A stretch of DNA of 64,000 nt, from assembly GCA_016782425.1 (NCBI GenBank), contig JADHYN010000001.1:655-64654 (forward strand), read 5' to 3'. This stretch comes from Candidatus Omnitrophota bacterium. Lineage in GTDB: Bacteria; Omnitrophota; Gorgyraeia; JABMRN01; RBG-13-46-9. The position numbers and the translations under genes were made by a program. The notes under the pieces were generated by a model. It ran no database searches, had not been told where the DNA came from, and worked only from the letters and a program-made list of their open reading frames with translations. How positions within the stretch are numbered: the stretch's first letter is position 1; every line of letters starts with the position of its first letter. Positions 4,736 to 63,210 of the stretch are shown here, one piece after another.

Positions 4736-4742
4736 TTTAAAA

Positions 4743-25168: not shown

Positions 25169-26644
25169 TTACTTCTTACCTTTCAGAGTATCTATGACAT
25201 TTTTAACCAGTTTTGGACGATTAGTTTTTGCCAACTCAACAACATACGCCAATCTTTTCATGTTGAGTCTAAGTTTATCTTTCCTTGATTTCTTAGCGAC
25301 AATAGTATACGCCCTCTTTCTTGCTGCAATAAGATAACCGGCATCCAGATCATTCACCTCCAGCATGGGCTCCTCTCTTGAATAGGCCTCCCAGTTCATT
25401 CGCTTCCCTTCAATCCAGCGCAACCCTCCTTCGCCTTGATCGGCCATTTTAAATACATCAGTTGCGGGATACGCGTCAAGTATGTTTATACTTGCGTTGT
25501 CACAAGGTAATCTTGCAATCAGTTTCATCGTCTCTTCGAGTGTATTCTTATTTTCGTACGGCAATCCAAAAATAATGCTTATATTTACATGGCTTATGCC
25601 TGCGCATTTCGCGGAATGTACTTTTTCGATTATCGCATCTTTTGCGTACCCCTTATTAGCCTTTTCCAGCACCTCTTCGCTTCCGGATTCCACGCCGAAA
25701 AAGGTATATATACAGCCTGCTTTTTTTGCGTGTTTAAACATTTCAGGATCTGCGGTATCAATTCTTGTCTCAAAACCCCATTGTACTTTTTTATGCAATC
25801 CGCGCTTTATATACTCGTCGCAAAATCTCGCAAACCATTCTTTTTTTGAGCAAAATAGGCTATCTTCAAAATAAATGCGTTGTGCGCCATGCTCTTTATT
25901 TAACAAGTCAATCTCATCTAATATGTTTTCGATTGCCCGAACGCGATGTTTCCTTGTATGCAGCGGCATGCAAAAAGTGCAGCGAAAAGGACACCCGCGG
26001 GAAGCGAAAATGGGATAGACGTGTTGAAAATTATACTTACTGGGGTTGTATACTCTTGCGTACTTCTTATAACATACAAGGGAAAGGTCCGGAAATGGTA
26101 AAGAATCTAAATCCTTGATTAATGCTCTCTCATCATTGCGTATGATTAGGCCTGATTTATTACGCCACGCGACTCCTTTTAGATTAACAAACAAATCATC
26201 GGTCGCGCGGCAACCATGCCGTATTCTCTGGCAAAGTTCAACAATGGTATCCTCTCCTTCCCTTATTACAGCGGCGTCAATATCAACGCACTCTCTAAGC
26301 GTATATTCGGGTAATGCTGTCGAGTGCGCCCCGCCAACCAGGGTTATCGTTTCGGGACATACTTTTTTTACGCATGCGGCAATCTTATACGCTGAAAGTA
26401 TATTGAATGTTTTGGATGAAATACCAACTATGGCTGGACGAAGATCTTTTACTGCTTTTTCCACATCACCATGGCTTAGGTTGTACGTAGGAATATCCAA
26501 GATTTTGACGTTAGCACCGGTTTTTAATTTAACGTATGTCGCGATGTAAACAATGCCCATGTTGGGAGTGGGCAATTTTCGCCCAAGGGCCTGTTCGGTA
26601 ACCAGGCCCTTGGGCGAAGACGGATCAATAAATAAAATATTCAC
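25169..26644 (-). CDS. B12-binding domain radical SAM protein
   Basis: SRGCPFRCTFC is a CxxxCxxC motif. This is the third paralogue. Confidence 0.85.
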   Translation of the reverse strand: MNILFIDPSSPKGLVTEQALGRKLPTPNMGIVYIATYVKLKTGANVKILDIPTYNLSHGDVEKAVKDLRPAIVGISSKTFNILSAYKIAACVKKVCPETITLVGGAHSTALPEYTLRECVDIDAAVIREGEDTIVELCQRIRHGCRATDDLFVNLKGVAWRNKSGLIIRNDERALIKDLDSLPFPDLSLVCYKKYARVYNPSKYNFQHVYPIFASRGCPFRCTFCMPLHTRKHRVRAIENILDEIDLLNKEHGAQRIYFEDSLFCSKKEWFARFCDEYIKRGLHKKVQWGFETRIDTADPEMFKHAKKAGCIYTFFGVESGSEEVLEKANKGYAKDAIIEKVHSAKCAGISHVNISIIFGLPYENKNTLEETMKLIARLPCDNASINILDAYPATDVFKMADQGEGGLRWIEGKRMNWEAYSREEPMLEVNDLDAGYLIAARKRAYTIVAKKSRKDKLRLNMKRLAYVVELAKTNRPKLVKNVIDTLKGKK

Positions 26645-27753: not shown

Positions 27754-29415
27754 CTACCCCAAATAACCCAGGTGGCGTAATCGTTCCATTAGGCGTTTTT
27801 CGTCGCAGGCATTATTTTCCTGTTTTTTATAAATTATACTTTCGGATTTTTGGTATTTTACCGGGGCGCAATTTTTGATTATTTCATCCCATATACGCCC
27901 ATCCATATCTTCCGGGACAGGAACCCCCATTAGATGTAAAACCGTGGGCGCTATATCCTCGATGCGAGCTTCGGAAATTCTGGCATTAGGTTTAATCTTG
28001 TTTCCCATAGCCATCAATACTCCCGAGGGGCTGTGGGACCCACCCCGCCTTCTTACGAATAAGCAGCTATCGCTCAATGTATTCCGTGTCGTGCAGCTAA
28101 AATCATCTATTTTAACTACCAAGTCCGGCATTTTATCAAGATGCGGCCCTTTAGCGTATATATCCTCTTTGCGCAAAATTTCGGCCGATTGGACCTGCCA
28201 TAGAAACTGCAACTTCTTAAATTCAGAGCAAATATGTTCTATTGTTTCTTTGCGTGCCCGCGAGGAAAGGTTTTGTTTTTCGCAAAAAGGCCCAACGTAT
28301 ATTTCGCCATAATTCCCATATCCGTAAGCTTTCGTATGTTCCCAATCAATAAGGTTTTCGTCAAAATTTATGCTGTCCCGGAAAAAGCGCTGCAGATTTA
28401 TCTTGCCCCTTACCACATTAATTAATCGTTCCATTTTTACATTGCTTCTTATTACCGGAAAAAGCATCTTTTTGATACTTCTTGTCAGGTAGCGGCTCGG
28501 GTTCTTCAATAAATTTAAAGACTCTTTTTTTAGATGCAATACCCCTATTTTTTCAAGCCACGTATTGATGTTGAACTGCCATTTCACCGGCTGCATGCCA
28601 TGATCGGACATGATTAAGACCTCCGTATCTTTGCCAGCGACTGTAATTAGTTTCTTTATGCAATCGTCCAAAATAATATAAGACTCCATTAATAAACTTT
28701 GCGCATGCATCATTTCCGGCGCAAGAAGCCTGTGAAATACGCGATCCAGACTTGTAAATGTCGTAATGAGCAAATCCCATTCCGGATATTTTTTCATAAG
28801 ATACAACGTGGCGTCAGATCGGTTAAGCATAACTTCTCTTGCGCGATTCAGCAACCATTTATCGCTAAAAAACCTTCTTTTTTCCATCCTTGATCTCTCT
28901 TCTTTCTGCCCGGCCCTGTATGAAAGAGAGGTCTTTAAATCCCAGAAATCAACTATGTAGGCGCTACCAAAGGCGCTATTTAGCTCGCTCTCCAGCCCCC
29001 TCGGGAATGTTAAAGCCATATCCTGTGGTTTGAAAAAACCGGCTACTATGAATCCATTAACTTTTTCTGCCCTAAAAACAGATGGAACATTAATAACGCC
29101 TATTTGCTTACCTGCGTCATTCACATAATCCCAGAATGCCTTTCCTTCTGAAATTTCACTGTAAATATAAGGTTGAAATGAAAATGTATTCTTTTTTCTC
29201 GTCATAAACCACGGGATTCCTATTTTTGCCGGTGATTTACCTGAGGCAAAAACATTCCACGCGGGGCAGCTGGCAGGGGGATACGTGGAACGCAATTTAT
29301 TAACTACGCCTTTTTCAAAAAATAGTTTAAACGTGGGCAACCTACCCGCTTTAACCCCGAGTTCTATAAAATTCAAATCCGCCGCATCGATTCCAACTAT
29401 AAGCAATTTGGACAT
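27754..29415 (-). CDS. alkaline phosphatase superfamily protein (type I phosphodiesterase/nucleotide pyrophosphatase fold)
   Basis: The N-terminal LLIVGIDAADLNF and internal LIMSDHGM motifs are typical metal-ligand motifs of the family. I place the start at the ATG at 29415 (MSKLLIVGID), which abuts the upstream stop at 29420. The ORF-track N-extension (to 29556) overlaps wzx and looks spurious. Confidence 0.65.
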   Translation of the reverse strand: MSKLLIVGIDAADLNFIELGVKAGRLPTFKLFFEKGVVNKLRSTYPPASCPAWNVFASGKSPAKIGIPWFMTRKKNTFSFQPYIYSEISEGKAFWDYVNDAGKQIGVINVPSVFRAEKVNGFIVAGFFKPQDMALTFPRGLESELNSAFGSAYIVDFWDLKTSLSYRAGQKEERSRMEKRRFFSDKWLLNRAREVMLNRSDATLYLMKKYPEWDLLITTFTSLDRVFHRLLAPEMMHAQSLLMESYIILDDCIKKLITVAGKDTEVLIMSDHGMQPVKWQFNINTWLEKIGVLHLKKESLNLLKNPSRYLTRSIKKMLFPVIRSNVKMERLINVVRGKINLQRFFRDSINFDENLIDWEHTKAYGYGNYGEIYVGPFCEKQNLSSRARKETIEHICSEFKKLQFLWQVQSAEILRKEDIYAKGPHLDKMPDLVVKIDDFSCTTRNTLSDSCLFVRRRGGSHSPSGVLMAMGNKIKPNARISEARIEDIAPTVLHLMGVPVPEDMDGRIWDEIIKNCAPVKYQKSESIIYKKQENNACDEKRLMERLRHLGYLG

Positions 29416-29419
29416 TGTA

Positions 29420-30949
29420 TCATATCTCCCTTTTCGAAAAATCACCGCTTTTAAGCACCCGTCTGACGGCGTTAACCGCTTTGTAGAGCAAAAAACGGTC
29501 CTCTTGCGGCAGCAACAACAAAAAACCAGCAATAAAAACAAAGTTAACGTACGCAAGTTTTAAAAACCAGCAGGCGGTAATATTTCTGATAAGCGCAAAA
29601 GTCACCAGAGCTGCGCACAAAGGAATTATTAATCTGCTATAATCCATGTTCCAGGGATGTATCTTTAAAAGGCTGTATACTTCGATTAAGCCCAACAAGG
29701 CACACAAACTAAGTGAAATGCCCGTGGCAAAGGCCGCTCCTAATATTCCAAAAATAGGAATCAGCAACGCATTTAAAATTATATTCAAGACGGCCATTAT
29801 CGCGTTATTTATAAGAATTAAATTCGGGTGTCCGGACATTTGCAGCATGAAAGGCACCGGCCCCAAACTGGCTTTTAATAAATAAAAAAAGGAAAGCACA
29901 ACAAGCACGCTTGACCCCGTTTCAAAACTTTTACCGAATAAGCCCAATAGGTTTTTAGAAAAAAATACAATAGGTAAAAAACATAAAATGCTTATAATAA
30001 GATTCCATCTTGTCGTTGTTTTAAACAAGAGCTCCGTGTTTTTTAGTTTATTCCTATTGAACAAATCCGCGATTATAGGCGCGAAGGTTTCGTTCAAAGG
30101 CGTAATTAGTAAAGTTATGGAGGCCGCTATGATAGTCGCCATGCTATATATGCCTACGTCGTCCATGTTCAAGAAAAATCCCAGCATAAAAATATCTGTT
30201 TTTGCCAAAAGAAAAAATGAGACAGTAGCGAAGAACATCGGTAAAGAAAACTTGATCAATCCGAGCGGCTCATACACGGCTTTGGTTTTTGATAAAAAAT
30301 GCGGGAAATCTTTTTTCAGATAATACAAGCTTATAATCGATGCGGCAAAGCATGAAATTACAAAGCTCCATATAGCGCCATAAAGTCGGTAGCCTATCAA
30401 GAATACAGTCGTTAAAAGGATTAAATTTATGACCGTGCGGATTAAAAGTATATAAATGTAGCGTTTCATGCTTAGAACGGCACGTATATTATTCGCCGCT
30501 ATCGTAAAAAACACAAAAAACGGCAGCGATATTGAGAAAATCCTCATTACGCCAATAAGCGCGCTTTCATGAAATATATTAATTGCGATAAAAGGAGAAT
30601 AAATATACAGTATTGACGAAATAGCTACCGAACATACCGACGAAAGAACTATTGATATGATCAATATGCCCTTTTCCCGCCCTTTGTCATCCACGCCTCT
30701 ATGTGAAGATATGAATTTGACAATTCCCTGCGATAGTCCCAATAAAGCAATGGTATGCAAAAAAGAAATGACGGTTGACCCCATCGCGTAAAGTCCGTAG
30801 GCTGGCACCCCTAGGGTGCGCGCAAGAAACGCATGCTGCACGAAGTGTAGAAAAGTATTTGCGAGCTTTCCTATGAATATAGTCGTTCCGCCCTTGGCTA
30901 ATTTTTTTATGTACTTTTCGCTGCTTTCCTGATGATTTATTTTATCCAA
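29420..30949 (-). CDS. polysaccharide biosynthesis protein / oligosaccharide flippase (Wzx-like, MOP superfamily)
   Basis: It is 509 aa with about 12-14 TM helices. The N-terminal layout KKLAKGGTTIFIGKLANTFLHFVQHAFLARTLGVPAYGLY is typical of Wzx proteins. Confidence 0.75.
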   Translation of the reverse strand: MDKINHQESSEKYIKKLAKGGTTIFIGKLANTFLHFVQHAFLARTLGVPAYGLYAMGSTVISFLHTIALLGLSQGIVKFISSHRGVDDKGREKGILIISIVLSSVCSVAISSILYIYSPFIAINIFHESALIGVMRIFSISLPFFVFFTIAANNIRAVLSMKRYIYILLIRTVINLILLTTVFLIGYRLYGAIWSFVISCFAASIISLYYLKKDFPHFLSKTKAVYEPLGLIKFSLPMFFATVSFFLLAKTDIFMLGFFLNMDDVGIYSMATIIAASITLLITPLNETFAPIIADLFNRNKLKNTELLFKTTTRWNLIISILCFLPIVFFSKNLLGLFGKSFETGSSVLVVLSFFYLLKASLGPVPFMLQMSGHPNLILINNAIMAVLNIILNALLIPIFGILGAAFATGISLSLCALLGLIEVYSLLKIHPWNMDYSRLIIPLCAALVTFALIRNITACWFLKLAYVNFVFIAGFLLLLPQEDRFLLYKAVNAVRRVLKSGDFSKREI

Positions 30950-32120
30950 AATTTTTCCTCTCAGGTTTTTGCGTCTTTACGGCTGCAAAATACGATCTTT
31001 CCACGGCCTCAATGTATACGCTTGAGATGATTATGACCAAAGGAACCGCGATCAGCCTATAGCGCCAATGAGGCTCCGGCGCAAGTGAAAACAAGAGCCA
31101 GTTGGCACAAAGTGAGAATAATAAAAAATTTAATGCTGTATTTTTTACTTTCTTGTATATGAAAAACGTGCCTAAGAAAAAGAAAGAGAAAAGAAACATA
31201 TTGAAAGGCAAAACTAAGCATAACGCAAGGAGGCTGTTCGCGTCGGTTGGTATTGGTATCCAAAAAGCTGTCAGTTTTTTTAAGTACTCGGGAATTGAGG
31301 CGGCTACATCACTTGCGCTCAAAGACGTTAAAACATCGATAACACCGTGGCTTTTTAGGCCGGCGGTTTTTACAGAGCTTAAAAAAGTTATTTTATATGA
31401 AGCTTCAGAGGCTAAAATCTTTCGCAGCACAGCGTGTTCAGAAAAGTATGATAAACCTATAAGTGAAAAAATCAAAATAGAGATAAACAAAAATTTAGTC
31501 TTTATAACCTTGAAAAGAACAAAAATAAGCATAGCCAGACAAATAATTACTAGCTGTAATTTTAACGTTACTAGGGCTATTAACAAAATTAGGCTCATTA
31601 AAAAATATGAAAACGCCCGTGTTTTTCGCAGTTCCAGCAGGGCATAAGTAAACAGGATAAAAAGAAAAGCAAGCATGCTATCTTTTAAAATAAAAATTGA
31701 AAACCATGCCAATGAGGGTGATAAGGCCAAAAGAACTAACGCCCACACGGCGGCTTTCCTACTAAAGAACTCCTTTGCTATCCTAAAACCAACTATTGGC
31801 ACAAGAGAACTGATAACAATGTTTATGCCTTTTATGAAGAGTGGCGATGGTCCGAATAACCTGTAAACAAAACCGACAAACACGTGCCATCCGTAAATAT
31901 ATTTTATCGATTTGACATACGCGATAAACTCCTGCCAACTGCCGCTCATAGCGGTCCCTATATAATGATATTTATATTCATCCGGAAAGGATAAGAGAAG
32001 TTCGCTGTCAGTAGGCGGAAAAAATTTCATTTTTACAAAGTAGAGCAACAAACGGTAGAATATACCGAATAAAAAAACGCCTATTAAAAGCTTGGTTTTT
32101 GTTACTTTATGTCTATCCAT
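30942..32120 (-). CDS. polytopic membrane protein, possible GT-C fold glycosyltransferase or polymerase
   Basis: It is 392 aa and multi-TM. A DE-containing first loop, SFPDEYKYHY, faintly suggests a GT-C enzyme. The function is uncertain. Confidence 0.35.
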   Translation of the reverse strand: MDRHKVTKTKLLIGVFLFGIFYRLLLYFVKMKFFPPTDSELLLSFPDEYKYHYIGTAMSGSWQEFIAYVKSIKYIYGWHVFVGFVYRLFGPSPLFIKGINIVISSLVPIVGFRIAKEFFSRKAAVWALVLLALSPSLAWFSIFILKDSMLAFLFILFTYALLELRKTRAFSYFLMSLILLIALVTLKLQLVIICLAMLIFVLFKVIKTKFLFISILIFSLIGLSYFSEHAVLRKILASEASYKITFLSSVKTAGLKSHGVIDVLTSLSASDVAASIPEYLKKLTAFWIPIPTDANSLLALCLVLPFNMFLFSFFFLGTFFIYKKVKNTALNFLLFSLCANWLLFSLAPEPHWRYRLIAVPLVIIISSVYIEAVERSYFAAVKTQKPERKNFG

Positions 32121-33262: not shown

Positions 33263-34455
33263 TAAAAATGCAGCATTGAGTTATTTTTCAGATATTCATA
33301 CAACATAGACGCCGCCAGATAGTGCCCGTATTCGTTCCAGTGGGCTTCATGCTGAAAATATGCCGATCTCTTTGTATTGGTAAAATCAGCCTGAAAACTT
33401 TCAAGCATTGAAACGTTTAATATAGAATTCTGATCACAGAATTTATTTATCGCCGTGTAGGGATAACAGAAATCATAATCCTCCTCAGCCATAGAGCGGT
33501 AGCGTTGATAATACAGACCTGTATTCATTTCTGCCAGGGGTTTCATAGGCAGTGAAACACACAAAAATTGTATGGCGTTTCCGCGGCACACACTATCAAG
33601 CTCCTTAAGACAGGCCAACGTAACGTAAACGGCTTTCATCCAAACCATATTTTTTTTAACTAAAAATATCCCAAAATATTTCGGTATTTTATTAACATCT
33701 TTAACTCTGCGTGCCAACCGCGATATATTCTGCCGCAAAAAACAAAGGAGCTGCGACTTTTTATATACTCTGTAGAGAAATGTGCCCTTGCCTTTGTCCG
33801 TCCCGGAGGGTACGGCCGCCAGTTTGCCATATTTGTCAATCGTATAATACGGCAAAAATTCATCTTTTGTTAACTGTTTACAGCTATTGAAAAAATCATT
33901 CGCGGGATACAGGCACAGGATGACTAAGTCGGGTTTGTATTTAAGTCCGACTTCTTTAAAGTACTTTAATTGCTGAGCCGTGCCCCATCCTGACCTGGCA
34001 AGCGCAATGACTTCGTAGCTGCCGTTTGCGCTGTTGCGTTTTGAGTTTAATTGCCCTGAAAGCACGCTGGCGACGAGATTATCTTTATTGACCTGCAGCC
34101 CCTCTATCATTGAGTCGCCCAAAATAAGTATACGGAAAACATTTTTTTCTTTCTCGTAACCGTGCTCATAATCATGCTGCCCATGAGTATTTATAAAAAC
34201 TATATTATTGAATTCTTTTCCGGCAAATCTTGCACGTTGACAGGGCTTTAAAAGAGCGCCCATGGCACTGTTGGGCACCCATGCAACGGTGGATACCCTT
34301 ACATGCGGCAATACCCTTATACAGATTTCACCAATAATGAATGCGCATATAAGCCCAAGGAAGAAACGGGTAATGACGCTTCTGTTTTTAATATACTTTC
34401 CACTCATAAACTTTTTGATAATTTCGCCAAAACTCTCTTTTCCGCCCTTCTTCAA
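33262..34455 (-). CDS. SGNH/GDSL hydrolase family protein (possible glycan O-acyl esterase/acyltransferase accessory)
   Basis: It has an N-terminal TM helix. ILILGDSMIEG is the GDS(L) block I. A later start at the ATG at 34407 is possible, because the long form overlaps the upstream gene. Confidence 0.5.
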   Translation of the reverse strand: MKKGGKESFGEIIKKFMSGKYIKNRSVITRFFLGLICAFIIGEICIRVLPHVRVSTVAWVPNSAMGALLKPCQRARFAGKEFNNIVFINTHGQHDYEHGYEKEKNVFRILILGDSMIEGLQVNKDNLVASVLSGQLNSKRNSANGSYEVIALARSGWGTAQQLKYFKEVGLKYKPDLVILCLYPANDFFNSCKQLTKDEFLPYYTIDKYGKLAAVPSGTDKGKGTFLYRVYKKSQLLCFLRQNISRLARRVKDVNKIPKYFGIFLVKKNMVWMKAVYVTLACLKELDSVCRGNAIQFLCVSLPMKPLAEMNTGLYYQRYRSMAEEDYDFCYPYTAINKFCDQNSILNVSMLESFQADFTNTKRSAYFQHEAHWNEYGHYLAASMLYEYLKNNSMLHF

Positions 34456-36280
34456 TAATAGAAAAGAATTTTTTTATTTCCGAATCGGGCCAGCCGAGAA
34501 TTACCTCAAAATTCTCTTTCTGCAAATCGTATTTTCTTTTCGAATTCAAATAAAGCTGGCGGAAATATTTATAAACTCCATATTCAAACCCGATTAAATT
34601 CCCACCTATTGGGGTAACTGGATATTTTGTTGCCTTATATATTTTTATTTCCCCTTTTGAAAAAGATTTTAGTAAAGAAAATTTAGGGTTATTTTCGACG
34701 TATAAATTCAAAAAATTCCGCTTTTGGGTAACTACTAAATATCCGATGCGGCCGTCATTTATTTGCTTCAGGAGATCGCTTTCAAACTGCCCTTCAAGCC
34801 ACTCCCTGCTTGGCCAAATAAAAAGTGGCTCCTCATAACGCCTTTCGTATTTATTTTTGAATTCTGATATCTCGACATTTTTTATTTCAAGCAATTCGTA
34901 CTTGCCTTGCGTGAAGAAATATATGGCGTTTAGCGCGTATTTCTGGCACAAAATTGCGGTTCCAGGAACGATATTTTCTTCAATCCACTCCGAAGACTCT
35001 CGCACGGTTTTACTTGTCCACCCGTCTAATTTAAAATCACTTTTCCAGAACGAAAACTCATATACACCTCTCACCTTTACGCCAAATATCAGGCTCAAAA
35101 AATTCTTTTTGGCGGTTGCCCCGACAAATACCTGCATTAAAACACACGCCAAAACTAAAAAAAACACGCTTATGTTCAAAATTCGATTTTTTGCTTTTAA
35201 AAATTCTGTCGGAAAATTAATTAAAAAATTAGCGATCGCTAGATAAAACAAAAAATAAAGCGTAAGAAATTGGCCCAAACGCGAATTCGCTTTGGCGGTT
35301 ATGTAAACTACCGGTAAAAACAATATGACCGCCATCAGAAAAATCCTGTCTGAAAGTTTTTTTCTAAAAACAGCTCCGAAAAAGCTGTAGGCAATTCCAA
35401 AAAAAACCAAAGGCCATATCGCAAGCTGCCTGATAATATACCGGTTAATAAAATTGCTGGCTATTCTCAGCTGTTCCGCAAGAATGCCTCCCGTCGACCA
35501 GGTTAATCGGTTCGGCGTTATTATTCCAAATTTTTTAATTTCGTTTAAATTCACGAGCGGCCCTACCAATATTTCCAGACTTTCTTTTCCGGCAAAAACC
35601 TTATAGAGCCAGGGAGAAAGCAGGACAGCTGAAAACATGAAAAATAGCGCAGTGCCTTTTGCGGTTTTGACGCTTCTGTAACTTTTAAAGCACAGGAGAC
35701 AAACCGGAAGCGGGATAAACATAACTGCTATCACCCCTTTTAAAAGTATTGCCAGTGACAGCGCGAGCCCCGCAAGTGCAAAATATATGTAATTTTTATT
35801 TTTAAACGCTAGATAAATCAAAAAAATGTAACCCAGAATAAAGAACGGCACGATATTATCCAGCAACAGATATGACGCGCATCTGTTGACAACGAATGAA
35901 GTAAACACCAAAAGGCTGCAGGTCAAACCGGTTGCTTTATTGAACATTTTCGACCCGAGAAAATAAATAAGCATTATATTGAGCACATAAAATAGCCGAA
36001 CCACGTAAAAGGCGCTTTTTACGCTATAGCCGAATATACTGAAAGAGGCGGTCATCATAAGGGGAAAAAGCGGTCTGTAAGTGATTATTTTTTCCATGCT
36101 AAATTGCTTATACATAGCCGCTGCATTGCTTAGATACCAGCATGAATCGGGCGAAGGGTTAACGCCCTTTAGAGGAAAAAAAATCATTGCAAGAGCGAAG
36201 AGAACCAACGGTATAAAATAAGGCGATTTTGCCAAATTTCTAAAGCGCGACGATATCTTAAAAAAATTCATAGCAATCAA
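34388..36280 (-). CDS. membrane glycosyltransferase, GT39/ArnT-PMT-like (GT-C fold), putative
   Basis: It is 630 aa with a multi-TM N-terminal half and a soluble C-terminal half, the general architecture of ArnT/PMT-like enzymes. Confidence 0.45.
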   Translation of the reverse strand: MIAMNFFKISSRFRNLAKSPYFIPLVLFALAMIFFPLKGVNPSPDSCWYLSNAAAMYKQFSMEKIITYRPLFPLMMTASFSIFGYSVKSAFYVVRLFYVLNIMLIYFLGSKMFNKATGLTCSLLVFTSFVVNRCASYLLLDNIVPFFILGYIFLIYLAFKNKNYIYFALAGLALSLAILLKGVIAVMFIPLPVCLLCFKSYRSVKTAKGTALFFMFSAVLLSPWLYKVFAGKESLEILVGPLVNLNEIKKFGIITPNRLTWSTGGILAEQLRIASNFINRYIIRQLAIWPLVFFGIAYSFFGAVFRKKLSDRIFLMAVILFLPVVYITAKANSRLGQFLTLYFLFYLAIANFLINFPTEFLKAKNRILNISVFFLVLACVLMQVFVGATAKKNFLSLIFGVKVRGVYEFSFWKSDFKLDGWTSKTVRESSEWIEENIVPGTAILCQKYALNAIYFFTQGKYELLEIKNVEISEFKNKYERRYEEPLFIWPSREWLEGQFESDLLKQINDGRIGYLVVTQKRNFLNLYVENNPKFSLLKSFSKGEIKIYKATKYPVTPIGGNLIGFEYGVYKYFRQLYLNSKRKYDLQKENFEVILGWPDSEIKKFFSIIEEGRKREFWRNYQKVYEWKVY

Positions 36281-38961: not shown

Positions 38962-40377
38962 TTATTTTAGTTGCAATATATCCATACCTACCTGAAATTT
39001 CAGCTTCAGTTCATTAAGGGAACGTACCGTTCTTAAACTTTTGAAAAAATATGATGGTCTAATGTAGAATTCCTTGTAAGCAGTTTTTAATACTTTTTGT
39101 ATTTCATTCATTTGCACGGTTTCAATCCAGGATTTCGGTTTAAAACCGTCTACCGGATTGAGCGCAAATTCACGCCAGTGGTCATGAGGAAACCTGCCGG
39201 AAAACATGCCTTCTTCGTATAGAGGCGTACCGGGAAATGGAATAAGTATCGTAAAATGGCAATACTCAGGATTGAGTTGTTTCGCGAACTTTATCGTTTC
39301 CAGCATATCAGGCAACATTTCTCCAGGACATCCGAACATGAAGTATGCTGCGGTATGAATTCCTGTATTTTTAGACAATTTAAAAACGCTTCTGATCTTT
39401 TCTTTAGCAATGTTTTTCCCCAATCTTCTCCGTACTCTATCATTGCCAGATTCTACGCCATAGTTAATCATTTTGCAGCCAGCCGATTTAAGTGCTTTTA
39501 ACATCTCTAAATCTACACAGTCTATGCGCGCACGAATGCTCCAGATAACCTTAACGCCTCTTTGCTTTATTTCCCTGCAAACCTCGAAAACGCGCTTTCG
39601 GTCAACGTTAAACGTATCATCATAAAACATGATCTTTACAGCACCCGCTTTTATGCATTCCTCCATTTCATCCACTATGTCACCGGCGCTTCTGGATCTA
39701 AAATTTTTCCCAAGATGTGGCCTATCACAAAACGTACATTTATATGGGCATCCGCGCGAGCTAATCATTGTCGTAATCCCAGATCCAAGCACACTCGAGA
39801 AGTAACGTTTGTTTTTTATCATCGCCCTGTCCGGATGAGGAATATCATCTAACTTCTCAATTAAATTGGAGCTCGTGTTGCACACGACATCGCCTTTTTT
39901 AGTTTTGAAACAAAAACCTTTTATTTCTTTCAGGCTATCTTCGTCATTCCATAAGTTTAAAAGCTTCGCGATTGTATACTCCCCCTCGCCCAAGACCACA
40001 TAGTCAACACAGTTAAAGCCTATAGTCTCTTTAGGATAAAGATGGACATGAGGACCGCCGAAAATTACTTTTATTAGAGGGTTTATTTTTTTTGTAAGGC
40101 GAGCCGTGCGCAAGCAATCTATCAACGAATGAGTCATAGCAGTAATGCCTACGGCATCGGGTTTGCTGCGTTTTATACGCTCTTGGATTTGCCCATAATT
40201 CAATCTCTCGGCAACACAATCAACGAACTCCACATCCCAATCAGTCCACCGTTTTACGCTGGCAGCGATATAAAGCAAGCCTAAGGGTGGGACAATTCCT
40301 GTTCCGCGTTCCAGCACATCAGGTAATTTTGTATCGATAACATTTTCTTCTGAAGGGTATAATAAAAGAAGTTTCAT
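38962..40377 (-). CDS. B12-binding domain radical SAM protein
   Basis: SRGCPYKCTFCDR is a CxxxCxxC motif. This is the fourth paralogue. Confidence 0.85.
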   Translation of the reverse strand: MKLLLLYPSEENVIDTKLPDVLERGTGIVPPLGLLYIAASVKRWTDWDVEFVDCVAERLNYGQIQERIKRSKPDAVGITAMTHSLIDCLRTARLTKKINPLIKVIFGGPHVHLYPKETIGFNCVDYVVLGEGEYTIAKLLNLWNDEDSLKEIKGFCFKTKKGDVVCNTSSNLIEKLDDIPHPDRAMIKNKRYFSSVLGSGITTMISSRGCPYKCTFCDRPHLGKNFRSRSAGDIVDEMEECIKAGAVKIMFYDDTFNVDRKRVFEVCREIKQRGVKVIWSIRARIDCVDLEMLKALKSAGCKMINYGVESGNDRVRRRLGKNIAKEKIRSVFKLSKNTGIHTAAYFMFGCPGEMLPDMLETIKFAKQLNPEYCHFTILIPFPGTPLYEEGMFSGRFPHDHWREFALNPVDGFKPKSWIETVQMNEIQKVLKTAYKEFYIRPSYFFKSLRTVRSLNELKLKFQVGMDILQLK

Positions 40378-40390
40378 GCTTGAATAGCTT

Positions 40391-41272
40391 TTATTGTTTT
40401 AATTCTCTTCTTATGTGCGCCATCTGGTCAACAATTAATCCCAAGAAAAAAATCAAAATACCGCTAAAAATAATTAGCAGGGTTATGTCCTGAATGTTCG
40501 AATGTATAATGTCGTACACCAAAAGAAAAGCCCCCCCGAGAAATGTCAGAAATGCCGCGGGTAAAAATAATTTCAGCGGTGAAAAAATTGTCATGAGTCG
40601 AATAACCAACAAGAATGCCTGCATTCCATCGAAAAGAGTAACCTTGCTTTTACCGAAACGCTTACTCGCAGATATAGGAACATACTTGATGTTATATCCG
40701 TCTCTGAGAAGCGCGATAGTCAATGTAGTTGAAAGAGAAAATCCATTTGGCAAAAGGTGCATATATTTCATAACTATATCTTTCTTGATTAGCCGAAAGC
40801 CTGAATTAAGGTCAGGTATGCGCGTTCTTGATAAATAGTTTGCCGTAGAATTGATTATTTTTTTCCCAAATGAATATAGCGCGGACTCTTTAAACCTGCA
40901 TTCTCTTTCCCCGACAACCATATCATAATTATTCATCTCTTCCAAAAATTTACGAATATCTTCGGGATCATGCTGGCCATCGCCGTCAAGCGTACATATA
41001 AAGCTGCCTCTGGCGGCCCTGATACCGGTTTTTATCGAAGCGCCGTATCCTTTATTAAATGAATGCCGTATATTTTTTACATTGAAATTTTGTATAAGCT
41101 TATACGTATCATCTCTGGAACCATCATCAATAACAATTATTTCAAAATCCGGATATAATTTAATCAGCTGCGACAAGATTCCATTAATAGATTTTTCTTC
41201 ATTGTAAACGGGTATAATTATACTAACTTTCGTAATTTGGGTTGTTGCTAATATTAAAGGGTTTCCTTCCAT
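40391..41272 (-). CDS. glycosyltransferase family 2 (polyprenyl-phosphate sugar synthase-like, C-terminal TM anchors)
   Basis: VSIIIPVYNEE...IIVIDDGSRDDT and a DxD-type TLDGDGQHDP motif are present. There are two C-terminal TM helices. Confidence 0.8.
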   Translation of the reverse strand: MEGNPLILATTQITKVSIIIPVYNEEKSINGILSQLIKLYPDFEIIVIDDGSRDDTYKLIQNFNVKNIRHSFNKGYGASIKTGIRAARGSFICTLDGDGQHDPEDIRKFLEEMNNYDMVVGERECRFKESALYSFGKKIINSTANYLSRTRIPDLNSGFRLIKKDIVMKYMHLLPNGFSLSTTLTIALLRDGYNIKYVPISASKRFGKSKVTLFDGMQAFLLVIRLMTIFSPLKLFLPAAFLTFLGGAFLLVYDIIHSNIQDITLLIIFSGILIFFLGLIVDQMAHIRRELKQ

Positions 41273-41303: not shown

Positions 41304-41642
41304 TTAAGCTTTTATTTTAATCATTTCCTCATTAATCATGTCTACGAGTTGAAGCTTAGAATGGGCCCCTATAAGCCTTTTGATTTCTCGTCCTTCGTCA
41401 AATAGAATAATGGTCGGCACCCCTGAAATGTTAAAACATGCGGCACTTGTTTGATTCTGATCCACATTTATCTTCGCCACACGGATTGAGCCGTTCAGCT
41501 GAAATAACAATTCCGTTAAAATCACTTCCATCATCTTGCACGGAGGGCACCAGGAGGCCCAGAAGTCGACAAGGACGGGAATGCTAGACTTAAGAACTTC
41601 TTCTTCGAAGTTTTTATCAGTTAATGTTAACGGCTTTTCCAT
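41304..41642 (-). CDS. trxA: thioredoxin
   Basis: The active site is WASWCPPCKMM. It has typical thioredoxin length and fold motifs. Confidence 0.85.
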   Translation of the reverse strand: MEKPLTLTDKNFEEEVLKSSIPVLVDFWASWCPPCKMMEVILTELLFQLNGSIRVAKINVDQNQTSAACFNISGVPTIILFDEGREIKRLIGAHSKLQLVDMINEEMIKIKA

Positions 41643-43149
41643 TCTTTTTTACTGCATGGTTATTGTTTTTAATGAGCTCGAGGCGCTCGACTTCCTTTTT
41701 CTCTCCTGACCACCAAGTTTTTGGCAAGATCACATGTTCTTTTTCCTCTATTCGTTTTTTTATTTCCGGCCGGGTAAGAAGAGCGAACATCCTGTGAATT
41801 TCTTTTTCAAGCATATCGCTCTGAACAAAGCCAAATTCATCCGGTAGTTTATTGAAGATTGGTTCGAAGGGATGCCGATCTGCTTCCACACGCGGATTTT
41901 CGACGCGCTGGATTTCGATTTTAAGGCCAAAATCTTTCTCCCCTATTTTTTTAACGGTTTCCGCGAGTTTGCGCATACTGCAGTAGCCAGACATCTGGTT
42001 TACTACGTCATACTGTCCCGGCTCAGGGGGTTTCGCGATAAGACGGGTTATGCACTGCATGGCATCTTCTAACCCTATAAACCCGCGTATCTGCTCGCCT
42101 TTGCCGTAAAGTGTAAGAGGAAAACCTATTACAGCTTGTGCCACATAGCGGTTGATAACCGTTCCAAATGCTTCGTCTATATCATAACGCGTCCTCAATC
42201 TTGGATCAGCAGCTAAATGGTCGGTATACACCCCGTAAATAACGCCTTGCATGACATCATATGAACGGAGCCACCAATATTTGCAGGCCTCATATACGTT
42301 GAATGTATCCTGGGCTTTGCTACAGTGATAAAAACTTACGGGATCGCGCGGCGTAAGCTCACCTCCCATTGACCATTCTCTGTTATTCCACTTAAGGACC
42401 GCATTCGCAGGAAACATTCCTTCAAATATGGGCCTTCCTGTAAGGGGCGTTCCGTACTCACCCATGGTCCCGAGTTTTATTAATGATGCCTCCGGGACAA
42501 CCTCGTGCATAGTAAACAAAAGCCCTAAAGTTCCTATAACGTTGTTTTTCTGCACATAGGCCGCGTGCTCGAAATCTATCATGCTGTACGGAGCGCTCGG
42601 GCACTCGCCATAATGCACGATTGCCTCGGGTTTTACTTCCTCTATAAATTCTTTCAATAACTCTCGGTCTAATATATTAATTTTTCTGAAATTTATGTTT
42701 AGTCCCAGCACTTCCTTAGCAGCATGGAGCCGTTCAGTCATATCGGAAATGGGCACGATTGTATGCGAGCCCCTTTCAGCAACCCATGAGCGTCGACTGA
42801 AGTTGTCTATACCGCTTACATGGCAACCGAGCTTACCGAGCCACAAAGCCAAAGTCCATCCAAGGTAGCCATCCATGCCAAGTATCATGATACGCATGTT
42901 TTTCAGGAGATACCCGTATTGCGTTTCTCTCCATTCGGGGCACTCCTCGAAAGTTATGCTTGTCGGGTCAAAAAGCCCAAGTTCAGGCCGCCTTTTGCAC
43001 TCTGCCATTATGTGGCTATCTCCGGTTTCATCTTGTTTTTTCTCGAATTTCAAAGCAGACTGCCCGCAAGCTCTAAAATCTACTTTTCCTGCCAGATTTA
43101 TTGCGGGGCAATTCCAACAGGTGCAATCGGAGTTATGGAATTTTGTCAT
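41617..43149 (-). CDS. sqdB: UDP-sulfoquinovose synthase (SqdB/SQD1 family) with an ~85-aa Cys-rich N-terminal extension
   Basis: The core reads MRIMILGMDGYLGW, GECPSAPYSMID, NNVIGTLGLL, KLGTMGEYGTP, SFYHCSKAQD and QGVIYGV, which matches the SQD1 active-site blocks. The N-extension is MTKFHNSDCTCWNCP...C...C...C. Its ATG overlaps the upstream stop as ATGA. Confidence 0.8.
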   Translation of the reverse strand: MTKFHNSDCTCWNCPAINLAGKVDFRACGQSALKFEKKQDETGDSHIMAECKRRPELGLFDPTSITFEECPEWRETQYGYLLKNMRIMILGMDGYLGWTLALWLGKLGCHVSGIDNFSRRSWVAERGSHTIVPISDMTERLHAAKEVLGLNINFRKINILDRELLKEFIEEVKPEAIVHYGECPSAPYSMIDFEHAAYVQKNNVIGTLGLLFTMHEVVPEASLIKLGTMGEYGTPLTGRPIFEGMFPANAVLKWNNREWSMGGELTPRDPVSFYHCSKAQDTFNVYEACKYWWLRSYDVMQGVIYGVYTDHLAADPRLRTRYDIDEAFGTVINRYVAQAVIGFPLTLYGKGEQIRGFIGLEDAMQCITRLIAKPPEPGQYDVVNQMSGYCSMRKLAETVKKIGEKDFGLKIEIQRVENPRVEADRHPFEPIFNKLPDEFGFVQSDMLEKEIHRMFALLTRPEIKKRIEEKEHVILPKTWWSGEKKEVERLELIKNNNHAVKKNGKAVNIN

Positions 43150-44429
43150 TTACTACTCTCTCTTTCGGTTAAAAGATTAATTATATTGGTAACGTCACAT
43201 ACGTTGGGATTTTCGGGAATTAAACTTTCGCAATTCTTCCGGTTAACCAGTAAGAACGCATCGTCCCATGAATGCTTGCCGGTAAAAATGCCTTTAGAGA
43301 AAATTCTTTCGGAAGTTAAGCCGGCTTTTAAATTGAATCCCTTACTTCCTAAAAGTACTAAATCCGGCGCCATGTCGAAATAAGGGCCCTTATAAATTTC
43401 TTCTTTTCTATAGATGCGCTTTATGACTTTTTGGTTATTTTCTTTTAAGTCCTCAAATAATTTCTCTACACCTTTTATTACGCTTTCTTTGTCTTCCGGC
43501 TTAACACTGCCTCTCGGGTATTTGCCTTCTAAATTCACGTAGATGCGCGCCGGATCAAGGGCAAAGGCCTTTGTGCCGTAATCTATATGACTAAAATCTA
43601 TTCTTTCTCCGTTCTTCAGTTTCAAAAAACCTGCCTTTTTTAAAATCCTGTTTACATAAACATCCTTCTCGAGTTTTTCAAAACCATGGTCAGAAAGCAT
43701 TAAAAAAGTGTCGTTTTCATTAATTTTTGATGCGATTTCGCCTATCACTTCATCTATTCGCCTAAAATAGCTACTGAACTCTTCGTGAAATTCATTGTCA
43801 GGGTCTTCGTATGCGTCCCACAAGAAATGCATGAGCCGGTCAGTTCCCGTGAACACAAACATGAATGTATCCCATTCCTCTTTCCAGAGTTCCCTGTACA
43901 CAGCTATGCGCGCCTCGTTGGTCCTTTTTAAATCCTTAAGAAAAAGCTCGATGGATTCGTGCGCCTTACTTGAATCGACATCGGTCGCGTAGTTTAGATT
44001 TTTTAGTACCTCAAGCATGGAATTAGGGTAAGTGGCTTTTTCAAGGTCAAGCGCGACAAAACCGGCCACAAGCACACCGTTTAGTTCGTGCGCCGGGTAA
44101 GTGGACGGAACATTGATAACGATATGGCGCTTGCTATGATTTGTTTCCCAGAAGGCAGGCGTCTTTAAATCATTAAAGTTCGGGAAAGAAAGCCTATAAG
44201 TATTTTGCGGGAATTCCGTAAAACCGAAGATACCGTGTTCTGCCGGGTTTTTCCCCGTAATTATCGATGACCACGCAACAGATGAAACTTCCGGTAGACT
44301 TGAGAACATTTTGCGGAACGTGCCGTCTGAAATAATTCCTTTTGTGTTGGGCATTACGCCGCGGTCAGCCAGGTCTTTTAAGAGCCCGAAAGGAACTCCG
44401 TCTAAACCGATTATTATTGTACGTCCCAT
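43146..44429 (-). CDS. alkaline phosphatase superfamily protein (type I phosphodiesterase/nucleotide pyrophosphatase fold); paralogue of 27754..29415
   Basis: IIIGLDGVPFGLL and LMLSDHGF are the metal-ligand motifs of the family. Confidence 0.65.
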   Translation of the reverse strand: MGRTIIIGLDGVPFGLLKDLADRGVMPNTKGIISDGTFRKMFSSLPEVSSVAWSSIITGKNPAEHGIFGFTEFPQNTYRLSFPNFNDLKTPAFWETNHSKRHIVINVPSTYPAHELNGVLVAGFVALDLEKATYPNSMLEVLKNLNYATDVDSSKAHESIELFLKDLKRTNEARIAVYRELWKEEWDTFMFVFTGTDRLMHFLWDAYEDPDNEFHEEFSSYFRRIDEVIGEIASKINENDTFLMLSDHGFEKLEKDVYVNRILKKAGFLKLKNGERIDFSHIDYGTKAFALDPARIYVNLEGKYPRGSVKPEDKESVIKGVEKLFEDLKENNQKVIKRIYRKEEIYKGPYFDMAPDLVLLGSKGFNLKAGLTSERIFSKGIFTGKHSWDDAFLLVNRKNCESLIPENPNVCDVTNIINLLTERESSK

Positions 44430-53286: not shown

Positions 53287-53604
53287 CTAAATATGAGAAT
53301 CAACCTTGGAGGCAAGTTCCGATTCGGGGACTACCCCGACAACCGTATCAACGATCTTACCACCTTTAAAAATAGCTAAAGTAGGTATGCTCATAATGCC
53401 ATATTCAGATGATGTTTTTGGGGCTTCATCAACGTTTAGTTTGCATACTTTTAGTTTGTCTTTATACTTTTTAGCTATAGCCTCGACTGTCGGAGCAACC
53501 ATGCGACAGGGCATGCACCACTCAGCCCAAAAATCTACCAAAACCGGCAAATCTGAGTTTAATACAACCTCATTAAAATTCGCATCATTTGTATTTATCT
53601 CCAT
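53287..53604 (-). CDS. thioredoxin
   Basis: The active site is WAEWCMPCRMVAP. I place the start at the ATG at 53604 (MEINT), which has an AGGAGA RBS. Confidence 0.85.
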   Translation of the reverse strand: MEINTNDANFNEVVLNSDLPVLVDFWAEWCMPCRMVAPTVEAIAKKYKDKLKVCKLNVDEAPKTSSEYGIMSIPTLAIFKGGKIVDTVVGVVPESELASKVDSHI

Positions 53605-53677
53605 TTCTCCGTTCTCCTTTCTCAAAAAATTTCATTTAATAATATACTTCTAAACCTATTCAAAGATGCTATTCTCT

Positions 53678-56833: not shown

Positions 56834-57610
56834 TCAAACCTTGCCTCTTCTTTTCAAGGTGTCTTCCGAGCTGATAGGATTAACTCTCTTTTTTTGTGCG
56901 TCATAAACCGAAACGGTATTCAATCCGGCAAAATGCGCTTTTATAATATTCATTTCCGGATTCGTTAACGGTTTTACCCTGCATGGCCTAAGAGGCGTGT
57001 TTAGCTGAACTTCATCGGGACTAATTTCTTTTGCAATCTTCGCAATCTCCTGCACATAGCTTTTATTTTGTTCTATGAACATAATCTGCAACGCCAATTT
57101 TCCTATATAGCAGCTTTTAAAGTCTTTTACTGCCTGAATAATATTTTCAATTTTTATAGTGCTTAACGGCTTATTTACTTGGTTAAAAACTTTTTGCATA
57201 GAACTATCTAATTTGGCAACGACAAAATCCGCACAAAAGAGGTCTTTTTGGACATCTTCTCGGTTCAAAAGCGAGGAATTAGTCAAAACTGCTATTTTCT
57301 CATTTCGTATTTTCTTTATCGCCCTTATCATATCGCCCAGGTTTTTCGCCAATGTCGGCTCACCGGTTCCGGAAAAAGTTATGTAATCGATTTTGAGATG
57401 TGGCAGGCTATCAAACTCTTCTATTACATCCTCAACCTTAACAAACGTCTTCCGTTTATCGGTTAATATCTTAGTCTTTCCGATCTGGCAATATACACAA
57501 TCGAATGTGCAAACCTTCTCACCCTTAGACAAAGGATCTATCCCCAGAGAACTGCCTAACCTCCAGGACGGTACAGGCCCATAAATATATTTATAGTTTT
57601 TTTGGCTCAT
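56834..57610 (-). CDS. radical SAM protein ([16 protein letters not shown]-terminal motif class)
   Basis: CTFDCVYCQ is the CxxxCxxC motif, and [10 protein letters not shown] is the SAM-binding GGEP-like motif. I place the start at the ATG at 57610. Confidence 0.75.
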
Positions 57611-58430
57611 CCAAAACACTCGCAATCTTCACCATAATTTCATTCATGATGTTCGCTGTTTGTGTCTGTCTTTTAAAATGAATAAATGGTTGCCCCGAAT
57701 CTCCAAACTTTACCATTTCAGGTTCAATAGGTATTCTTCCTAAGAACGGCACTTTTAAATCATGAGCCGATTTCTCGCCACCACCCATTCCGAATAAATC
57801 TATCTCTTTTTTGCAGTGCGGGCACAAGAAACCGCTCATATTCTCAATTATACCAATAACAGGCATTTTCAACTCTTTCGCGAATAAAACACTCTTTCTT
57901 GAATCCAAAATAGCCACATCCTGCGGCGTAGTGACCACTATCGCTCCATTTATGTCCGGAATAAGCTGGCATACGCTCAATGGTTCATCACCGGTTCCAG
58001 GAGGAGAATCCACTATTAAGTAATCAAGCTCCCCCCAGTTAACATCAGCCAAAAACTGTTTTATGGTTACCATTTTGAGGGGGCCGCGCCAAACAATAGG
58101 CTGATCTTGATTCTCAAATAACAAAGCAAGACTTACTGCTTTTAGGTTAGGCAAAACTTCCATGGGCTCAATTCCGGACTCAGAACCTATGAGCCTTTTG
58201 CCTTCAATCCCTAACATTTTGGCAATATTGGGCCCGTGAATATCGACATCCAGAATGCCCACCTTATTTCCTTTGACAGCCAGCCCATACGCTAAATTAA
58301 CGGCAACTGTGCTCTTGCCGACTCCGCCTTTTCCGCTTATTACAATAAGCTTATATTTTATTTTAAACATCCTCTCTTTGAGGCGGTTCTCTTGTTCGAT
58401 TCTTTCTTCGTCTTTTTTCTGCATCAGCAA
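57591..58430 (-). CDS. Mrp/NBP35/ApbC-family Fe-S cluster carrier ATPase
   Basis: The deviant Walker A is [11 protein letters not shown]. The [13 protein letters not shown]-terminal CxxC motif is typical of ApbC/Nbp35. Confidence 0.85.
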
Positions 58431-58448
58431 TCTTCTTATTAATTTTAT

Positions 58449-59363
58449 CTAGGGCTTATCAATTCCTGTTTGTAACTTTTCCCATGCCTCGTTTATTTCC
58501 TTTTTGGCCTTTCCGCCAGCGTATTCTGTTATTGTCTTCCCTTTAACCATCGCCTCTACCACAGATTTATCGAAAGGGATTTTGCCTACTAAACCGATAT
58601 TATTTACCTTTGAGTATTCCTCTATTTTTTGCGTCATATCCGTATTAAGGTCGTACTTATTTACGATTAATTTCGCTAAAATACCAAAATGTTTGGCTAC
58701 ACTTATAACCCTATCCGCATCATGAAGCCCTGAAAGCGTCGGCTCTGTAACAACAATAGCACAGTCTATGCCTGAAAGAGACGCTATGACAGGACACCCT
58801 ATCCCGGGCGCGCCGTCTATGATTACGAGATCCGCTTTTTTTGCTTCGGCCAGTTCCTTTGCCTTTTGCCTAACAAGGCTTACAAGCTTCCCGGAATTTT
58901 CCTCCGCTATGCCGAGCTTGGCATGTACCATAGGGCCAAAACGTGTATTAGAGATAAACCATTCGCCTGAAATATTTTCTTCCATTTTTATGGCGCCTAC
59001 GGGACAAGCAAAACTGCAAAAAGCGCATCCTTCGCAGGAAACTCGGTCTACGGTAAAATCCTCGCTTACCTCGTTAGAAATGTCATTTCTAACGGGGCTA
59101 ATAGCATTGAAACGGCAAATTTCTATACATTTGCCGCATTGAACACATTTATTTTTATCTATGAAAGCCGTTTTACCGCTTCGAAATTCATATCGTTCTT
59201 TTATGTTAGGCTGCAACAATAAATGTAGGTCCGCCGCGTCCACATCGCAATCAGCCATTACTTTGTTTTTCGCAAGGGCGGCAAACGCTCCCGTAATTAC
59301 GGTTTTCCCTGTTCCGCCTTTTCCGCTTATTATTACGATTTGCTTCACTATAACCTTTCTCAC
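58449..59363 (-). CDS. MinD/ParA-superfamily P-loop ATPase with inserted 2x[4Fe-4S] ferredoxin domain
   Basis: The Walker A is ISGKGGTGKT. The inserted ferredoxin motifs are CVQCGKCIEIC and CEGCAFCSFACP. Confidence 0.8.
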   Translation of the reverse strand: MRKVIVKQIVIISGKGGTGKTVITGAFAALAKNKVMADCDVDAADLHLLLQPNIKERYEFRSGKTAFIDKNKCVQCGKCIEICRFNAISPVRNDISNEVSEDFTVDRVSCEGCAFCSFACPVGAIKMEENISGEWFISNTRFGPMVHAKLGIAEENSGKLVSLVRQKAKELAEAKKADLVIIDGAPGIGCPVIASLSGIDCAIVVTEPTLSGLHDADRVISVAKHFGILAKLIVNKYDLNTDMTQKIEEYSKVNNIGLVGKIPFDKSVVEAMVKGKTITEYAGGKAKKEINEAWEKLQTGIDKP

Positions 59364-60712: not shown

Positions 60713-60719
60713 CTTTCTT

Positions 60720-61944: not shown

Positions 61945-61948
61945 AATT

Positions 61949-62805: not shown

Positions 62806-62820
62806 CTCCTATTTTGTTTC

Positions 62821-63195: not shown

Positions 63196-63210
63196 ATCCT
63201 CCCCTTTCTT

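Follow-up and report, generated by a model that had tools for sequence, protein, structure and literature searches.

Sulfoquinovose is a major organosulfur compound, and the way in which sulfite is transferred in vivo to the UDP-sulfoquinovose synthases has been described as unknown (PMC4388408). The question of where such an enzyme obtains its sulfur donor is raised by a locus in a metagenome-assembled genome (MAG) of Candidatus Omnitrophota, of which a stretch of 64 kb (the window) was analyzed. There, the gene of a synthase that resembles plant SQD1 and carries an additional N-terminal domain with five invariant cysteines (Cys5-SQD1) is placed between the genes of an alkaline phosphatase-superfamily protein, designated PDE here, and of a thioredoxin. 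Because sulfite delivery to the synthase is described as unknown, this three-gene cassette is of interest, and the Cys5-SQD1 family represents a genetically compact candidate answer concerning the sulfite source. Cys5-SQD1 is a variant of a known enzyme, in a very widespread cassette that was previously undescribed: we found no description of the Cys5 domain or of the cassette in the literature. All three genes currently have only generic names in public databases, and their products are labeled in GenBank as “alkaline phosphatase family protein” (MBL7156560.1), “NAD-dependent epimerase/dehydratase family protein” (MBL7156559), and “thioredoxin” (MBL7156558), respectively. The positions of the features are collected in Table 1.

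A five-cysteine domain fused to an SQD1-like core

The first-pass annotation of this DNA, made from the sequence alone, had assigned the larger part of the protein to the SQD1/SqdB enzymes, and this assignment holds. The sequences of the SQD1 structures 1qrr and 1i24 align end to end with residues 85–480 (E values of 3e-82 to 4e-82), the core is 40.5% identical to plant SQD1 over 380 residues in a MAFFT alignment, and its Pfam matches are Epimerase and GDP_Man_Dehyd. The top Protein Data Bank (PDB) match of the full-length AlphaFold (AF2) model, which has a mean confidence score (pLDDT) of 78, is also 1qrr (E = 7e-32, TM-score of 0.84 normalized to target length), and SQD1 is the closest solved relative of the core by a wide margin, in sequence and in fold. 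T228, which lies within G-T-M-G-E-Y-G, Y274, H275, and K278 are the equivalents of Thr145, Tyr182, His183, and Lys186 of SQD1 and are conserved in all 68 family sequences. What the protein has in common with plant SQD1, bacterial SqdB, and archaeal Agl3 (EC 3.13.1.1) is the extended short-chain dehydrogenase/reductase (SDR) architecture with its G-xx-G-xx-G NAD motif, the Thr/Tyr/His/Lys set, and the Met of GTMGEYG. It differs from them in the 84-residue Cys5 domain, in a C-terminal tail of ~30 residues (TWWSG...), in an enlarged, family-specific loop between the catalytic Thr and Tyr (residues 236–270, LTGRP...EWS.GGE.TPRDP, whose invariant newcomers include R239 and R268), and in the replacement of a conserved arginine by proline that is discussed below. 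In some members of the family, an intein of ~340 residues of the LAGLIDADG type (PF14528) was observed (loci L017, L068, and L084; proteins P0054, P0065, and P0173), and it sits exactly between KLG and TMGEYG, which makes the catalytic Thr, the equivalent of Thr145 of SQD1, the +1 residue of the extein.

The 84 residues that precede MRIMILG contain C9, C11 and C14 (as C-W-N-C-P), C28, C51, and C70 (in EECPEW), in agreement with the cysteine-rich extension that had been noticed originally. C11, C14, C28, C51, and C70 are invariant in all 68 full-length proteins, and C9 is present in only 34% of them. The spacing of the five, CxxC-x13-C-x22-(E)C-x18-C with ECxRRPE around C51, is accompanied by a set of near-invariant residues, i.e., H5, N6, W12, P15, D24, F25, R26, G29, Q30, E50, R53, R54, P55, G58, P62, and W73. 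The conservation of the extension exceeds chance by far: when the first 98 residues were used as a query, 49 proteins were matched with E values of 1e-10 to 7e-51, and all of the 120 best full-length homologs (~500–520 residues, 71–85% identical) have the extension or are truncated inside it. An exhaustive profile search of 1.84e9 representative proteins recovered only 46 clusters (at 50% identity) with the domain, which indicates a rare sequence type under tight conservation. It matched no Pfam family, giving only noise at E values up to 5, and the isolated domain, modeled with AF2 at a pLDDT of 74, matched no PDB fold at E ≤ 0.001; residues 51–84 have a pLDDT of 92–96 in the full-length model. 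Cys5 is thus a previously unclassified domain type. Some apparent carriers of it were discarded: short fragments that resembled independent proteins come from contig ends or frameshifts (e.g., that of L005), and P0202, a protein of 943 residues with five “repeats”, is a low-complexity false positive.

The domain is additional sequence, as had been supposed, because SQD1, S. meliloti SqdB, and the homologs from Pseudonocardia, Marinovum, and Natrinema showed no counterpart of the first 84 residues in the alignment. The starts of canonical SqdB proteins align with Met85, as would be expected if the true start were Met85 and the upstream 84 codons were untranslated. The conservation of the extension refutes such an internal start: the 84 codons maintain an identity of 50–85% at the protein level, with five invariant cysteines, across two domains of life, and stand-alone homologs of the Cys5 domain exist as open reading frames (ORFs) of their own. 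An annotation artefact, therefore, has practically no chance of being the explanation. The early start had been proposed on the basis of an ATGA stop/start overlap with the PDE gene, and this overlap is plainly visible in the sequence. It is nearly certain that the fused two-domain protein is real and belongs to a conserved cassette.

The PDE/Cys5-SQD1/thioredoxin cassette

When each species was represented by one genome, 220 genomes were found to encode the Cys5 extension, and the best 80 of these were examined as genome loci. When all ORFs around 85 non-redundant loci were clustered without prior assumptions, only PDE and thioredoxin, besides shadow ORFs, approached the synthase in frequency among the neighbors. 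The gene immediately upstream, in the same orientation, encodes PDE in 62 of the 70 loci that have room for it, and the gene immediately downstream encodes thioredoxin in 62 of 65; two of the three loci without thioredoxin are intein-lengthened genes running off the contig. The association with both genes, which the first-pass annotation had proposed to check, is well founded, and it sets these loci apart from four canonical sqdB loci of cultured organisms, whose products lack the N-terminal domain and whose neighbors are glycosyltransferase genes, with neither PDE nor thioredoxin. PDE and Cys5-SQD1 genes overlap or are at most 20 nucleotides apart in 35 of the 62 loci, an approximate count because the first start codon was taken, as a heuristic, for the start of each ORF in the related loci, and the thioredoxin and synthase genes of the window overlap by 26 nucleotides (41617..41642). 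The cassette is often translationally coupled, with overlaps or short gaps being frequent.

The cassette occurs in ~20 phyla of Bacteria and Archaea. Its bacterial hosts belong to Omnitrophota, Planctomycetota (Phycisphaerae, Pirellulales, Fuerstiella, and Kuenenia), Chloroflexota, Aminicenantes, Auribacterota, Nitrospinae, Desulfobacterota, Acetothermia, Patescibacteria, Poribacteria, and Armatimonadota, and its archaeal hosts to Bathyarchaeia, Thermoplasmata, Promethearchaeota (Asgard), Hadarchaeota, Aenigmatarchaeota, and Thermococci. The unit had been presented at first as part of a surface-glycan locus. A glycan neighborhood with Wzz, glycosyltransferase, and GT-C genes is indeed present in the window, but the cassette is not bound to such a setting: it is a widespread mobile cassette that travels between many contexts and not a peculiarity of this glycan locus.

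PDE matches PF01663 over its full length with a score of 143 bits (gathering cutoff, 23) and has no signal peptide. Its sole sequence relative in the PDB is phosphonoacetate hydrolase (PhnA), and the similarity is weak (E = 2e-3). Among 59 orthologs, D10, S49, D197, H201, D247, H248, and H386 are conserved at ≥90%; the bimetal ligand set (D10, D197, H201, D247, H248, and H386) is intact, and S49 aligns with the nucleophile position of PhnA. PDE thus shares with the NPP/phosphonoacetate hydrolase branch of PF01663 the full-length domain, the metal ligands, and a Ser at the PhnA nucleophile position, while it is very distant from the solved members of the family, has Ser in place of a Thr nucleophile, is predicted to be cytoplasmic, and is always paired with Cys5. 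Fusions of PDE with thioredoxin or SQD1 were also sought, and none occurred among the best 120 PDE homologs or the 46 clusters that carry the N-terminal domain. The glycan locus of the window encodes a second PF01663 protein (27754..29556, minus strand; 600 residues) with an SGSH_C-like tail, which is 24% identical to PDE and is adjoined by no Cys5 ORF.

The thioredoxin scores 102 bits against PF00085 and 106.7 against TIGR01068 (cutoff, 96.8). The CxxC motif is conserved in the thioredoxins of the cassette, as WCPPC in 39 of 61 and as WCGPC in none of the 61. The idea that, in this genome, the atypical WCPPC is a hallmark of the cassette was abandoned, because a second thioredoxin gene at ~53290..53610 (minus strand), whose product is 31% identical to that of the cassette, encodes WCMPC. 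An apparent second thioredoxin in the Fuerstiella loci was a clustering artefact and is actually a sulfotransferase-like P-loop protein.

The exhaustive profile search, and only that search, also recovered stand-alone Cys5 proteins of 68–108 residues that retain all five cysteines. In three independent groups of loci (L006–L008, L009–L011, and L092), such an ORF, encoding 68–85 residues, immediately follows a PDE gene, and no SQD1 gene is found beside the pair where the length of the contig permits a judgment. In L009–L011 the Cys5 ORF overlaps the PDE gene by 4 nucleotides and the next gene is convergent, so no SQD1 gene follows. The N-terminal domain, therefore, stays with the PDE gene also where it occurs apart from SQD1. 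Another stand-alone Cys5 ORF, at 548..790 of L093 (a Logan contig of SRR11308167), lies beside genes for a UbiA prenyltransferase, an MCM helicase, a PDDEXK nuclease, and a dUTPase, with neither PDE nor SQD1, in a context that looks viral or mobile element-like.

A possible route from APS to sulfite

A connection to sulfate activation is given by 10 loci in which genes for CysD and CysN lie immediately upstream of PDE; the two subunits exceed the thresholds of their NCBIfam models (NF003587 and TIGR02034), and CysN has no APS-kinase domain. Seven of the 10 have the order CysD-CysN-PDE-Cys5-SQD1-thioredoxin on one strand, and in the other three, from Pirellulales/Planctomycetota, a divergent CysD-CysN-PDE operon faces Cys5-SQD1-thioredoxin. 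In four further loci, a gene for a Sat-type ATP sulfurylase stands beside the cassette. These operons provide for the synthesis of adenosine 5′-phosphosulfate (APS), for a thiol reductant, and for an enzyme that consumes sulfite, so that PDE and Cys5 are the only components left over for the reduction step. A CysH-like gene was detected in none of the loci, where a search with an E. coli CysH query sequence gave only cross-matches to CysD. The suggestion made at the outset that the cysteine-rich module might act as a sulfite donor or relay receives indirect support from these ATP sulfurylase genes in the same operon.

Because of this synteny and the gap in the pathway, we propose, with a probability of roughly 0.45, that the cassette supplies sulfite from APS. 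The reaction would start with APS formed by ATP sulfurylase, whose genes share the operon in certain genomes and lie outside it in the remainder, the present genome among them. PDE would bind APS, cleave the phosphosulfate anhydride, and hand the sulfo group to a cysteine of Cys5, giving a thiosulfonate as in CysH-type reductases; thioredoxin would then reduce the thiosulfonate and free sulfite beside the SDR active site, where the core would convert UDP-glucose via the 4-keto-5,6-ene into UDP-sulfoquinovose. The sugar might finally be put on polyprenyl phosphate by the glycosyltransferase encoded next to the cassette (GT2), for surface glycan assembly. A stronger form of the proposal, in which the route is channelled and independent of CysH and the cassette forms a self-contained machine leading from sulfate to a sulfo-sugar, is more tentative. 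If it is true, it would concretely answer, for the Cys5-SQD1 family, how the synthase gets its sulfur donor in vivo. The family also suggests a probable role for an uncharacterized branch of the alkaline phosphatase superfamily (COG3379-type “predicted phosphohydrolase/phosphomutase”), and it predicts sulfonated surface glycans or glycolipids in at least 220 species of ~20 phyla, including the anammox organism Kuenenia.

The proposed system is comparable with CysH and thioredoxin as a functional analogy only: in both, a nucleotide anhydride-binding enzyme, a small set of invariant cysteines, and thioredoxin would act together, and the cassette lies beside ATP sulfurylase genes in some loci and has a sulfite consumer downstream. 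APS reductases have four cluster cysteines and one catalytic cysteine; the catalytic cysteine of CysH lies in ECG[LI]H, and the cluster ligands of the APS-specific enzymes in CC...CxxC. The PAPS_reduct fold of CysH (PF01507) is absent from PDE, which matches PF01663 only, and from Cys5, which matches no Pfam family; the motif around C51 is ECxRRPE instead of ECG[LI]H, and the nucleotide-binding partner is no member of the CysH family and comes from the alkaline phosphatase superfamily, whose enzymes act on nucleotide anhydrides and transfer sulfuryl or phosphoryl groups. In APS reductase, a Cys-S-SO3 intermediate is formed on the enzyme and thioredoxin releases sulfite from it (PMC1175818). 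The chloroplast complex of SQD1 with ferredoxin-glutamate synthase, which has been proposed to deliver sulfite (cited in PMC4388408), embodies a similar idea, in that a partner protein furnishes or channels the sulfur donor for the synthase. Its partner is an entirely different protein without homology to the present system, in which the partner domain is part of the same polypeptide and the reductant is encoded alongside.

Several observations weigh against the supply of sulfite from APS. Enzymes of PF01663 normally attack phosphorus, so that APS would yield AMP and sulfate, and we know of no precedent in this family for sulfuryl transfer to a thiol. No cysteine is conserved in PDE among the 59 orthologs, and no fusion of PDE to the Cys5 domain occurs in the sets of 120 homologs and 46 clusters mentioned above. 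ATP sulfurylase, either CysDN or Sat, adjoins the cassette in only 14 of 83 loci and is not encoded in the 64-kb window, the upstream PDE is missing in 8 of the 70 loci, and CysH could lie elsewhere in the genomes, since the search covered the loci. Every member of the cassette, moreover, comes from an uncultivated organism, represented by a MAG or a single-amplified genome. Other points concern the product of the core. The activity of Agl3 requires His95, Arg101, and Met145, and its Arg101 to Ala mutant is inactive (PMC4388408). The His95 equivalent is H179 in 57 of the 68 members and Gln in 11, and that of Met145 is M229, present in 67, but the position of Arg101 is occupied by proline (Pro184) in 66: ECPSAPY, with the family pattern E(C/I)PSAP, stands where SQD1 has EQRSAPY, and EQR is found at this site in SQD1, Agl3, and the S. 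meliloti, Pseudonocardia, and Marinovum homologs. In addition, the score against the NCBIfam equivalog NF041015 (417.9 bits) is below the cutoff of 575, although this is still by far the best NCBIfam family for the synthase (E = 3.5e-125). The replacement of Arg101 and the sub-cutoff score make the product less than certain; nevertheless, it is probably UDP-sulfoquinovose or some closely similar 6-sulfo sugar, and the protein is filed here as SQD1-like, not as a proven member of the UDP-sulfoquinovose synthases. Two candidate signatures of the family were dropped in this context. C183 in the active-site loop was considered as a family-specific catalytic cysteine and is only 54% conserved, being mostly Ile otherwise, and the idea that the loss of Arg101 is coupled to the N-terminal domain was weakened by the haloarchaeal Natrinema homolog, which lacks the domain and also has Pro at this position. 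That homolog, encoded at 4001..5173 of the Natrinema versiforme plasmid pNVE414 (L097), has AAQPSAPY, and TTTGVYG replaces GTMGEYG, so whether it acts as a sulfoquinovose synthase may be worth re-examining.

Other explanations can be weighed against the same evidence. It is rather unlikely, in our estimation, that the cysteines form a structural zinc or iron-sulfur site, with four of the five as ligands, or regulatory disulfides, and that thioredoxin keeps the synthase reduced in the way known from thioredoxin-regulated chloroplast enzymes, with free sulfite coming from ordinary metabolism and PDE having a separate housekeeping role in the pathway. A CxxC motif with three more invariant cysteines is a typical metal or disulfide pattern, the confident modeling of residues 51–84 in the full-length context would be consistent with packing on the core, and 69 of the 83 loci have no ATP sulfurylase gene nearby. 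Such a site, however, would leave unexplained why PDE is as conserved a neighbor as thioredoxin and why it is co-transcribed with CysN, it gives no account of the Cys5 ORFs that follow PDE without SQD1, and the near-invariant R26, R53, R54, E50, W12, and W73 exceed the needs of a simple structural knuckle. The PDE-Cys5 pairs without a nearby SQD1 gene (L009 and L010) also speak against PDE acting after the synthase, for instance in the conversion of UDP-sulfoquinovose into sulfoquinovose-1-phosphate or in phospho-sugar transfer, with Cys5 merely docking PDE onto the synthase and thioredoxin serving an unrelated CysH. Nucleotide pyrophosphatases belong to PF01663 and UDP-sugars are typical substrates of the family, and the adjacency of PDE and Cys5 would suit a docking role; but three loci have PDE and CysDN in one transcription unit on the other strand from SQD1, the destruction of a nucleotide sugar would clash with the GT2 gene that follows in many loci, and no locus encodes CysH, all of which make this possibility improbable.

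The chances seem slimmer still for a different donor or product, i.e., sulfur from a Cys5-bound persulfide or a thiosulfate-derived species being used to make a 6-thio sugar or sulfoquinovose while thioredoxin resolves a disulfide. The proline in place of Arg101, the enlarged loop with R239 and R268, and the sub-cutoff equivalog score would accord with it, as would the hosts, which come mostly from lineages regarded as anaerobic, in habitats where sulfide is presumably plentiful. Against this stand the operon link, which is to CysDN or Sat and not to carriers of sulfide or persulfide, the retention of the Thr/Tyr/His/Lys set and M229, and the proline of the haloarchaeal homolog without the N-terminal domain, owing to which the loss of Arg101 is not tied to that domain.

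The surrounding glycan locus

Downstream of the cassette in the window follows the GT2 gene, whose best NCBIfam matches are the AglJ, PpgS, and ArnC-type models, each below its cutoff. In 18 of 55 loci, that of the window among them, a GT2 homolog is encoded no more than 3 kb downstream, often straight after thioredoxin, and GT2 is probably the first user of the sulfo-sugar nucleotide. Two GT-C genes further downstream imply the use of polyprenyl-phosphate-linked sugars outside the membrane in this locus; the one nearer to the cassette is a possible consumer of such a sugar, and the context suggests that both may belong to the system.

Table 1. Features of the cassette and its surroundings in the window (all on the minus strand)
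Feature	Position	Strand	Description
PDE	43146..44429	−	AlkP superfamily, PF01663 (Phosphodiest), 427 amino acids; first gene of the cassette; predicted cytoplasmic
ATGA stop/start overlap, PDE/Cys5-SQD1	43146..43149	−	read directly from the sequence
Cys5-SQD1 gene	41617..43149	−	510 amino acids; extra N-terminal domain and SQD1-like core
Cys5 N-terminal domain, amino acids 1–84	42898..43149	−	motifs HN..TCWNCPA, G.VDFRACGQS, ECKRRPELG.FDP, ITFE.CPEW
SQD1-like extended-SDR core, amino acids 85–510	41617..42897	−	NAD motif G91-MDGYLG; catalytic T228, Y274, H275, K278
Dedicated thioredoxin	41304..41642	−	112 amino acids, WCPPC at residue 31; PF00085, TIGR01068
GT2	40391..41272	−	polyprenyl-phosphate-sugar synthase type (AglJ/PpgS/ArnC-like), C-terminal transmembrane helices; PF00535, 122 bits
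GT-C (PMT_2) membrane glycosyltransferase	34388..36280	−	PF13231, 44 bits
Second GT-C (PMT_2) membrane glycosyltransferase	30942..32120	−	PF13231, 28.5 bits
B12-binding radical SAM genes or look-alikes	38962..40377, 25169..26644, 21706..23124, 20316..21719	−	Pfam matches for at least two

The polysaccharide locus also contains at least two genes for B12-binding radical SAM proteins confirmed by Pfam, and two more ORFs resemble them. Such genes are unusual for a glycan cluster and suggest C-methylation or another radical tailoring of sugars. In a Dehalococcoidia locus (L001, 123..7617), genes for Nitro_FeMo-Co-like, CbiA/MinD-ferredoxin-fusion, NifU_N, DUF134, and DUF5320 proteins closely precede the cassette, and genes of similar appearance, as judged without Pfam, are found at ~57600..63600 of the window, ~12–20 kb from the cassette; the upstream genes of L001 may be a coincidence or may reflect a link to iron-sulfur handling. 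At the end of the window, an ORF (63710..64000, minus strand) that runs off the sequence encodes a low-complexity sequence rich in Gly, Arg, Tyr, and Pro (GYPVPGYANPIPGRGLGYGRGGGRGFGRG...).

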